Source: Christensenella sp. UBA1242 (GTDB taxonomy: Bacteria; Bacillota; Clostridia; Christensenellales; UBA1242). Taken from it: DNA of 62,847 nucleotides. Shown piece after piece: positions 11,850 through 12,629 of this stretch. The position numbers and the translations under genes are program-made. Numbering within the stretch: the first letter of the stretch is position 1; every line of letters begins with the position of its first letter. The stretch covers positions 1 through 62,847 of the forward strand of contig DBWI01000006.1 of assembly GCA_002308915.1 (NCBI GenBank), written 5' to 3'. The notes beneath the pieces were generated by a model. It was not told the DNA's origin and made no database searches. It saw only the letters and a list, made by a program, of their open reading frames with translations.

Positions 11850-12629
11850 ATGGAAACAAATAATTCAAGTAGCAAAAGAAGGATAAAAATTTATATAGCA
11901 GATAACACAGATTTTAAAAACAAGGCAATTGCATATTTTGAAACCAAAGACAACTTTGAGATTGTGGGGAGTAGTGATGACGGACAAAAGGCGTTTATTG
12001 ACATTTGCGCATTAAAGCCAGATGCTGTTCTTATGGAGTGTGTTTTGCCAAGTATTGATGGTTTTGTTGTAATGGATAAATTGAATGAAAGAATGGGTAG
12101 TAATCGTCCAAAAATTATTATCGTTTCTTCATTATCACATGATGGATTTGTTGCAAAGGCAATGAGTCAAGGGGCTTCGTATTTTTTGTGTAAGCCAGTT
12201 GAGTTAACTATTGTTGAGCAAAGAATAAACGATGTGTTTGATTTAGTAGAAAAGAAAGAAGAAAAAGCAAAGCCAAAGAATAGAATTTTGGAAGAAAAAA
12301 TTTCAAATATTTTTATCACTGTTGGCATTCCTGCTCATATTAAAGGTTATCAATTTTTGCGTGAAGCAATAAAGATGGCCATTGATGAACCAGAAATAAT
12401 AAACTCAATAACTAAAAAATTGTATCCAGCAATCGCTGAAAGGTTTGACACAAGTAGTAGCAAAGTGGAAAGGGCAATAAGACATGCGATAGAAGTTGCA
12501 TGGAATAGGGGGAAAATTGAGAATATAAATTCAATATTTGGATTAAAGGTGTACACCTCAAACGACAAGCCGACAAATGGCGAATTTATTGCTCTTGTTG
12601 CAGATAAAATGATAATAGAAGGAGTATAA
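11850..12629 (+). CDS. spo0A: Spo0A-family response regulator with an atypical receiver (Glu at the phospho-acceptor position)
   Basis: Spo0A_C hallmarks GIPAHIKGYQFLREAI, LYPAIAERFDTSSSKVERAIRHAIEVAW, KPTNGEFIALVADK; receiver has IADN and PDAVLMECVLPSIDG; SD AAAGGAG. Confidence 0.9.
   Translation: METNNSSSKRRIKIYIADNTDFKNKAIAYFETKDNFEIVGSSDDGQKAFIDICALKPDAVLMECVLPSIDGFVVMDKLNERMGSNRPKIIIVSSLSHDGFVAKAMSQGASYFLCKPVELTIVEQRINDVFDLVEKKEEKAKPKNRILEEKISNIFITVGIPAHIKGYQFLREAIKMAIDEPEIINSITKKLYPAIAERFDTSSSKVERAIRHAIEVAWNRGKIENINSIFGLKVYTSNDKPTNGEFIALVADKMIIEGV

Follow-up and report, generated by a model that had tools for sequence, protein, structure and literature searches.

Glutamate at the phospho-acceptor position of Spo0A in a species-rich group of gut Clostridia

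According to a review of sporulation initiation, all endospore formers have in common that Spo0A is activated at a conserved aspartate (PMC11210211). How, then, is one to understand a spo0A gene in which the codon for this aspartate specifies a glutamate? The question is raised by a 62,847-nucleotide stretch of DNA (contig DBWI01000006.1, analysed at its full length and hereafter called the window), where the open reading frame at 11850-12629 encodes a Spo0A protein with Glu63 at the acceptor position. A sequence-only reading had previously proposed a Spo0A ortholog with a clear Spo0A_C domain, a Glu at the position of Asp56 of the Bacillus subtilis protein, a degraded acidic pocket, and a regulator that may work without a phosphorelay. 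We find that the gene is a genuine spo0A ortholog, that most related species share the Glu, and that the other pocket residues are strictly kept. The features on which the argument depends are the following.

11850..12629, plus strand: spo0A coding sequence, 259 aa plus stop (open reading frame list, Pfam Response_reg and Spo0A_C, TIGR02875).
11883..12239, plus strand: receiver domain, residues 12-130, from β1 (12-17) to α5 (119-130) (AlphaFold2 secondary structure, Foldseek to 1qmp).
11901..11903, plus strand: codon 18, sole Asp of the β1-α1 loop, where canonical Spo0A has Asp-Asp (alignment of 'IAD.N' with 'VADdN').
12036..12038, plus strand: codon 63, GAG, Glu, in the acceptor column directly after β3 (HMMER alignment to receiver structures, AlphaFold2).
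12126..12128, plus strand: codon 93, a Ser where Thr or Ser is conserved, end of β4 (HMMER alignment, AlphaFold2).
12192..12197, plus strand: codons 115-116, conserved Lys-Pro after β5 (invariant in 80 species and 120 database homologs).
12294..12620, plus strand: Spo0A_C DNA-binding/activation domain, residues 149-257, containing SKVERAIRHAIEVAW (phmmer, Foldseek).

Both domains of the 259-aa protein were recognized by Pfam (Response_reg at residues 16-125, 2.8e-14; Spo0A_C at residues 151-253, 7.4e-41), and the NCBIfam equivalog model for Spo0A, TIGR02875, aligned with residues 11-256 at 249.2 bits, against a cutoff of 200. The phmmer comparison of Spo0A_C with the solved effector domains 1lq1 and 1fc3 gave about 1e-38, and the recognition-helix signature is kept, SKVERAIRHAIEVAW of the reading frame being paired with SRVERAIRHAIEVAW of 1lq1/1fc3 in the alignment. 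An AlphaFold2 model was built from 70 homologs (mean predicted local distance difference test score, pLDDT, of 87; 92-98 in the receiver). When it was compared with solved structures by Foldseek, the C-terminal half matched 1fc3/1lq1 with a template modelling (TM) score of about 0.9 and 56-57% identity, and the receiver matched the phosphorylated receiver of Spo0A, 1qmp, with a TM score of 0.90 and a root-mean-square deviation (rmsd) of 1.4 Å. By all sequence and fold criteria (Pfam, TIGR02875, model) the protein is a Spo0A, except for the phosphorylatable Asp after β3. Species-level counts in this study come from the best 80 of 385 related loci, one genome per species; these 80 loci all belong to different assemblies, and none of them showed two Spo0A copies in one genome. 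The gene order spo0A-murB-PHP-whiA, together with a small divergent gene, is common to Glu-type and Asp-type orthologs. Since the TIGR02875 cutoff is passed, the synteny is shared with Asp-type orthologs, and no genome with two Spo0A was seen among the 80 loci, we conclude that the reading frame is the true ortholog of spo0A in an uncultured Clostridia lineage of ruminant guts, with a low GC content (about 30%). Among the related metagenome-assembled genomes (MAGs), some carry the label Christensenellales; in the NCBI taxonomy the named relatives are entered as incertae sedis. In RNA data, part of spo0A was found in only one run, which is of uncertain kind.

The position of residue 63 was established from alignments and from the model. 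HMMER alignments to the Spo0A receivers 9phz and 1dz3/1qmp pair PDAVLMECVLPSIDG with PDVLVLDIIMPHLDG and PDILLLDIIMPHLDG, and Glu63 therefore lies in the column of the acceptor Asp. In the AlphaFold2 model, Glu63 follows β3 (59-62), Asp18 follows β1, Ser93 lies at the end of β4 and Lys115 comes after β5, which is the standard layout of a receiver active site with Glu63 as the acceptor-site residue. The hand alignment of the sequence-only reading, which had put the Glu at the Asp56 position, is thus in agreement with both the HMMER alignment and the model, and the profile alignment that it had recommended places Glu63, and no Asp, in the acceptor column. With a receiver fold and a non-Asp acceptor, the protein is an aspartate-less receiver (ALR) as defined in PMC4395418. 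A sequencing or assembly error at codon 63, the case that could have undone this reading, has practically no chance of being correct. Contigs of four independent samples encode one and the same 259-aa protein, the locus is present in bovine, sheep and goat gut metagenomes, and a variant contig from sheep gut has 6 single-nucleotide polymorphisms within 11850-12172 with codon 63 unchanged; moreover, Glu is found in 66 species and is encoded by both GAA and GAG.

How far does the Glu extend among relatives? The acceptor column holds Glu in 66/80 related species genomes and Asp in the remaining 14, and all species of the window's own clade are of the Glu type. The sequence-only reading had suggested asking whether orthologs in the clade share Glu63; they do, and the distribution of Glu-type Spo0A is much broader than that reading could see. 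Among the 120 closest proteins in a database of 5.8 billion proteins, 56 have Glu and 64 Asp at this column, and all 27 of those with at least 73% identity to the window Spo0A have Glu. Both Glu codons are in use among the 66 Glu-type species, and within the window's 10-species clade the codon flips synonymously between GAA and GAG, while GAT and GAC are absent. On a neighbour-joining tree with a more canonical relative as its root, a minimum of 3 Asp/Glu changes is required: the window's Glu clade and an Asp clade are sisters, about 54 species form a second Glu clade, and one Glu-type locus (L021; L numbers denote loci of relatives) stands as a lone branch. The predominance of Glu in 66/80 species, the GAA/GAG flips without GAT/GAC and the small minimum number of changes (at least three) argue for selection, and the Asp-to-Glu replacement is thus old, selected and common to a large radiation of related species.

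Spo0A-like proteins were also surveyed more widely, by way of the 150 top-ranking representatives of clusters formed at 50% identity. Of these, 98 have D at the acceptor, 13 E, 7 N, 5 G, 5 S, 1 Q and 1 Y, and in 21/150 the receiver was not aligned. Acceptors that are neither Glu nor Asp (Asn, Gly, Ser, Gln, Tyr) occur in the representatives P0137, P0143, P0144, P0161, P0183, P0187 and others. Loss of the Asp is therefore recurrent and goes beyond Glu, and aspartate-less Spo0A-like proteins are not rare across metagenomic diversity. A literature search, whose scope left out most subscription journals, turned up no account of either a natural Glu-type Spo0A or Spo0A D56E. The same survey of clusters returned three metagenomic proteins of 394-454 aa (P0123, P0124, P0132) with three or four tandem Spo0A_C domains and no Pfam receiver match.

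The state of the rest of the pocket was assessed by comparing the Glu-type and Asp-type groups. Asp18 is invariant in the 66 Glu-type and the 14 Asp-type species. Position 93 holds Ser in most Glu-type species (59) and Thr in the other 7, Ser being a normal alternative at the receiver Thr position. Invariant in all 66 Glu-type species are Ala17-Asp18, Ser/Thr93, Lys115-Pro116 and Asp70-Gly71-Phe72, as well as His97, Gly99-Phe100, Lys103-Ala104, Gly108 and Tyr111-Phe112. Averaged over pairs, receiver identity amounts to 0.56 among Glu-type and 0.49 among Asp-type species; for Spo0A_C the values are 0.90 and 0.91. Per-element identities compared between the two groups revealed no selective relaxation in any structural element of the Glu-type receivers. 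Helix α1 is the usual kinase-docking face of a receiver, and its decay in the Glu-type proteins was considered and rejected, as α1 varies more than any other helix in either group and is, in relative terms, no less conserved in the Glu group. When residues co-varying with Asp or Glu were sought, only position 63 separated the groups consistently, and positions 74 (V/L) and 101 (V/I) showed conservative shifts only. This is not the picture of a degenerate pseudo-receiver, given the invariant Asp18, Ser/Thr93 and Lys115-Pro116, and an identity in the Glu group at least as high as that in the Asp group. Strong purifying selection acts on the receiver fold, on the Asp of β1, on the Ser/Thr and Lys-Pro, and on the entire DNA-binding domain.

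The β1 loop of the window protein differs from the canonical one: the HMMER alignment shows it to be one residue shorter, with one Asp for two. The DD-to-DN substitution seen here by the sequence-only reading is better described as this shorter loop ('IAD.N' vs 'VADdN'). Asp-type sister lineages have a single-Asp loop as well (L091, for example, reads 'KVYIADNSEL'), and it is therefore no mark of the Glu state within the related group. Among the more distant cluster representatives, 9/10 scorable Glu-type proteins have a single acidic residue, and 59/88 Asp-type proteins have two. The earlier reading thus fared unevenly overall. It was right about the Spo0A ortholog (the Pfam, TIGR02875 and phmmer matches all support it), the Glu63 column, the Ser at the Thr position and the retained Lys, the last two being placed by alignment and model alike, but its degraded acidic pocket is not borne out, since the pocket residues are invariant in 66 Glu species, the one-Asp loop recurs in Asp-type sisters and the receiver is unrelaxed.

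Whether a Spo0A of this type still operates in a sporulation context was examined in the window and in the 20-kb neighbourhoods of relatives. In relatives whose Glu-type Spo0A is 82% identical to that of the window, spoIIGA-sigE-sigG lies directly upstream of spo0A, and the cluster adjoins Glu-type spo0A in L081-84, L003, L005, L007 and L098. The Peptidase_U4 gene upstream of spo0A has SpoIIGA as its best match, the 237-aa sigma factor has SigE as its best match (322.8 bits, just below the cutoff of 339), and the 257-aa sigma factor scores 381.5 bits with SigG, above the cutoff of 372. The second Glu clade has a full-length SpoIIE gene at most 10 kb from spo0A in L018, L022, L074 and L089, and a SipL-like gene at most 10 kb from spo0A in L062. 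The closest sequenced relative, MAG GCA_949292845.1, carries a Glu-type Spo0A 87% identical to that of the window ('LMECILP'; L096) and, on another contig (L099), the classical order ftsA-ftsZ-spoIIGA-sigE-sigG. Since both are found in the Glu-type neighbourhoods and in GCA_949292845.1, Glu-type Spo0A co-exists with the sporulation sigma cascade.

The linkage itself varies. In L081 and L098 the order is recD2, a comF-like gene, secA, spoIIGA, sigE, sigG, the small gene and spo0A; in the window, where 36527-43700 was compared with these two, secA is followed by reading frames without family match, with spo0A 25 kb away; in GCA_949292845.1 the sigma cluster comes after ftsA-ftsZ. As the order of secA, the sigma genes and spo0A differs among the three, the linkage has been rearranged within the clade.

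How might such a Spo0A be activated? Phosphorylation of an Asp is impossible at residue 63, and activation is for this reason most likely independent of aspartyl phosphate; we consider this the best reading, with a confidence slightly better than even. Glu-type Spo0A would then still be the master regulator of sporulation, only without switching by aspartyl phosphorylation. The longer carboxylate of Glu63, held by Lys115 and Ser93, could bias the receiver to the active, dimerising conformation, and the decision to sporulate would be set by the amount of Spo0A or by partner proteins. Candidate partners are the product of the divergent small gene and, in the window species, also that of an adjacent Spo0A_C paralog. 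A control by dosage or partners fits, without proof, the conserved block and -10 element upstream of spo0A and the divergent small gene, which are described below. Of the natural replacements in ALRs, Glu is the most frequent (26%), and activity that needs no phosphate can result from it (PMC4395418). The phosphomimetic, kinase-independent state proposed earlier would be a reasonable interpretation. For a clostridial Spo0A, little is claimed by saying that it works "without a phosphorelay", since the absence of the classical relay from Clostridia was already suggested by early genomic studies, as a review notes (PMC11210211). It is tempting to extend the reading to the whole group and to propose that in a large radiation of gut Clostridia (at least 66 species-level genomes, plus more distant Glu-type clusters) endospore formation begins with a Spo0A incapable of aspartyl phosphorylation; this wider proposal is tentative and, in our estimate, somewhat short of an even chance.

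Several observations weigh against these proposals. An Asp-to-Glu change alone is often insufficient for constitutive activity, and Spo0A is among the examples given (PMC4395418, where the citation for it is Green, Olmedo and Youngman, 1991). No sporulation gene besides spo0A was recognisable in the 62.8-kb window, which shows housekeeping genes (rpsF-ssb-rpsR, murB, whiA, dnaE, pfkA, the glmU/glmM fusion, recD2, secA and proS) and many reading frames without family match. In the relatives, the scores of SpoIIGA (91.7 vs 209.55), SigE (322.8 vs 339) and SpoIIE (375.6 vs 490.8) fall below the NCBIfam cutoffs. A machine-learning survey predicted most Christensenellales MAGs to be non-sporulating (PMC12536801). 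Finally, the invariant Lys115, Ser93 and Asp18 are equally compatible with a chemically working pocket.

The last point leads to the view that signal control persists, with a kinase or a small-molecule donor modifying Glu63 (as an acyl phosphate or methyl ester) or a neighbouring residue. The invariance of Asp18, Ser/Thr93 and Lys115-Pro116 in 66 Glu species with an unrelaxed receiver would be expected of such a pocket, as would the alternation of Asp and Glu on the tree without consistent correlated changes in the receiver, and phosphorylation or methylation of Glu is possible in principle (PMC4395418). However, according to the same source Glu phosphorylation has no known example in bacterial signalling, and it reports that receivers which are independent of phosphorylation commonly retain the Lys (70%) and the first acidic residue (65%). 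The annotated neighbourhoods, which are far short of a genome survey, contained no kinase gene either, and we regard a working pocket as distinctly improbable. An alternative that we rate as unlikely, if marginally less so, is that the Glu form is off or has been repurposed in lineages that are losing sporulation, where it would serve as a transition-state regulator or repressor and not as a spore trigger. Many non-spore-formers retain Spo0A (bioRxiv 10.1101/2022.02.25.481979), the prediction for Christensenellales MAGs (PMC12536801) points the same way, and the window, besides having no other sporulation gene, has lost the secA-spoIIGA-sigE-sigG-spo0A linkage of its relatives. Against this, both Glu clades hold genomes with spoIIGA, sigE, sigG, spoIIE or a SipL-like gene, the closest MAG included, and a DNA-binding domain that is about 90% identical across species means that the output function is strongly selected.

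Since spo0A paralogs are known in some Clostridia (bioRxiv 10.1101/2022.02.25.481979) and the window itself has an extra Spo0A_C paralog, one could also imagine that the phosphorylation-dependent job falls to a second, canonical Asp-type Spo0A encoded elsewhere in the genome, the Glu form being an accessory paralog. The Glu-type gene, however, stands at the place in the gene order where Asp-type orthologs are found, and no genome among the best 80 of 385 loci gave two copies, which makes this explanation very unlikely. The preferred reading, activation independent of aspartyl phosphate, can be set against known systems. With canonical Spo0A (B. subtilis, Geobacillus stearothermophilus, Clostridioides difficile; 1qmp, 1dz3, 1lq1, 1fc3) the Glu-type protein shares the two-domain architecture, a Spo0A_C that is 56-57% identical, the recognition-helix signature, a receiver within 1.4 Å rmsd, the Thr/Ser, the Lys-Pro and the Asp-Gly and, in relatives of the window, the linkage of the gene to spoIIGA-sigE-sigG. 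It differs from it by the Glu in place of the phosphorylated Asp and by the shorter β1-α1 loop with one Asp; in the window, spo0A stands beside the small divergent gene and the Spo0A_C paralog and not beside sporulation genes. Like ALR regulators such as ChxR of Chlamydia trachomatis (PMC4395418), it has a natural Glu acceptor in an otherwise intact receiver fold, and like most ALRs it retains the first acidic residue and the pocket Lys. Unlike ChxR-type ALRs, its effector is Spo0A_C and not of the OmpR/PhoB type; in addition, the Thr/Ser, the Lys and the remaining Asp are invariant over the whole radiation, and independence of phosphorylation is here what we infer. Engineered Asp-to-Glu regulators, such as NtrC D54E as cited in PMC4395418, embody the same idea of a longer carboxylate that partly mimics aspartyl phosphate, but these are laboratory mutants, whereas natural selection has fixed and preserved Glu-type Spo0A.

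If the proposal is correct, these bacteria do without the two-component phosphotransfer step that is held to be universal for the initiation of sporulation, and control through the dosage or the partners of Spo0A has taken its place. A deep and species-rich gut clade combines a selected Glu at the acceptor with the retention of sporulation sigma factors and SpoIIE and, if these organisms sporulate, their entry checkpoint would be unlike that of every studied model. This would bear on how the spore-mediated transmission of gut anaerobes is regulated, on the prediction of sporulation from MAGs, and on the receiver features that make a Glu activating. In a wide-ranging survey of sporulation genes, paralogs of spo0A are treated but changes at the acceptor site are not (bioRxiv 10.1101/2022.02.25.481979). 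The sister clades with Asp and Glu on a similar scaffold form a natural pair that offers a clean biochemical comparison.

The surroundings of spo0A in the window contain the following further elements.

11206..11682, minus strand: small gene, 158 aa, no Pfam/NCBIfam match, divergent from spo0A and syntenic in relatives.
11723..11736, no strand assigned: conserved motif AAAAAGCGACAAAA, minus strand TTTTGTCGCTTTTT, which resembles a 0A box; candidate autoregulatory site.
11814..11822, plus strand: candidate extended -10 element TGCTATTAT, a TGnTATnAT block conserved in the 7-species alignment; consensus resemblance only.
11838..11844, plus strand: ribosome binding site AAAGGAG, 5 nt before the ATG (from the sequence), invariant in 7 species.
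12631..12658, no strand assigned: GC-rich hairpin with a 12-pair stem between the convergent spo0A and paralog genes (terminator scan).
12705..13487, minus strand: Spo0A paralog, Spo0A_C (Pfam 2.6e-15) with a divergent receiver-like N-terminus.

The CGACAAAA block is invariant upstream of spo0A in 7 species, in regions that average 63% identity. On the reverse strand, the block at 11723-11736 reads TTTTGTCGnTTTTT, which agrees with the 0A box TGTCGAA at 5-6 of 7 positions; this 0A-box-like element suggests an autoregulation of spo0A. Scans of the whole window for 0A boxes were uninformative as evidence for a regulon. The exact box TGTCGAA was found 0 times, with 4.1 expected; TGNCGAA was found 31 times, with 13.75 expected, a number reached in 0/100 shuffles, its sites appearing scattered along the window without intergenic clustering, and TTTGTCGNTTT with one mismatch was at chance level. 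The TGNCGAA excess may come from codon usage.

The small gene has tblastn matches upstream of spo0A in L001, L003, L004, L006, L007 and L009, and genes of 139-164 aa occupy the same place in L081-88, L096, L098 and the Asp-type L091. The family has the motifs 'Y.DE.LSP..FE.MAKEYA' at the N-terminus and 'MFGVCKYR' at the C-terminus, and its conserved position is consistent with a product that may be a Spo0A-linked factor or partner. Downstream, the hairpin at 12631..12658 is likely a bidirectional terminator for spo0A and the paralog, which converge at a distance of 75 nt. The paralog is 22% identical to Spo0A_C. Its N-terminus gave no Pfam receiver match, and a low-confidence AlphaFold model (pLDDT 54) has a β-α-β-α-β-α-β pattern in this part. 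Among 5.8 billion proteins, only 2 relatives were found, the paralog itself and one protein at 38% identity; the gene is also present on contigs of the same species and is not beside spo0A in other species. The paralog is thus lineage-specific.

Three further genes of the window merit mention. A 2567-aa reading frame (55116-62819, minus strand) has no Pfam match whatsoever. A 620-aa protein (25472-27334, plus strand) is a fusion of the C-terminal acetyltransferase of GlmU, a left-handed β-helix, with a full-length GlmM; the fusion is also found in L085 and L096 (618-619 aa), and in L089 the two parts are encoded separately (207 and 435 aa). Just before the small gene lies a gene (7357-11181, plus strand) for a probable surface protein of 1274 aa, which has BspA-type leucine-rich repeats and InlB B-repeat-like domains.

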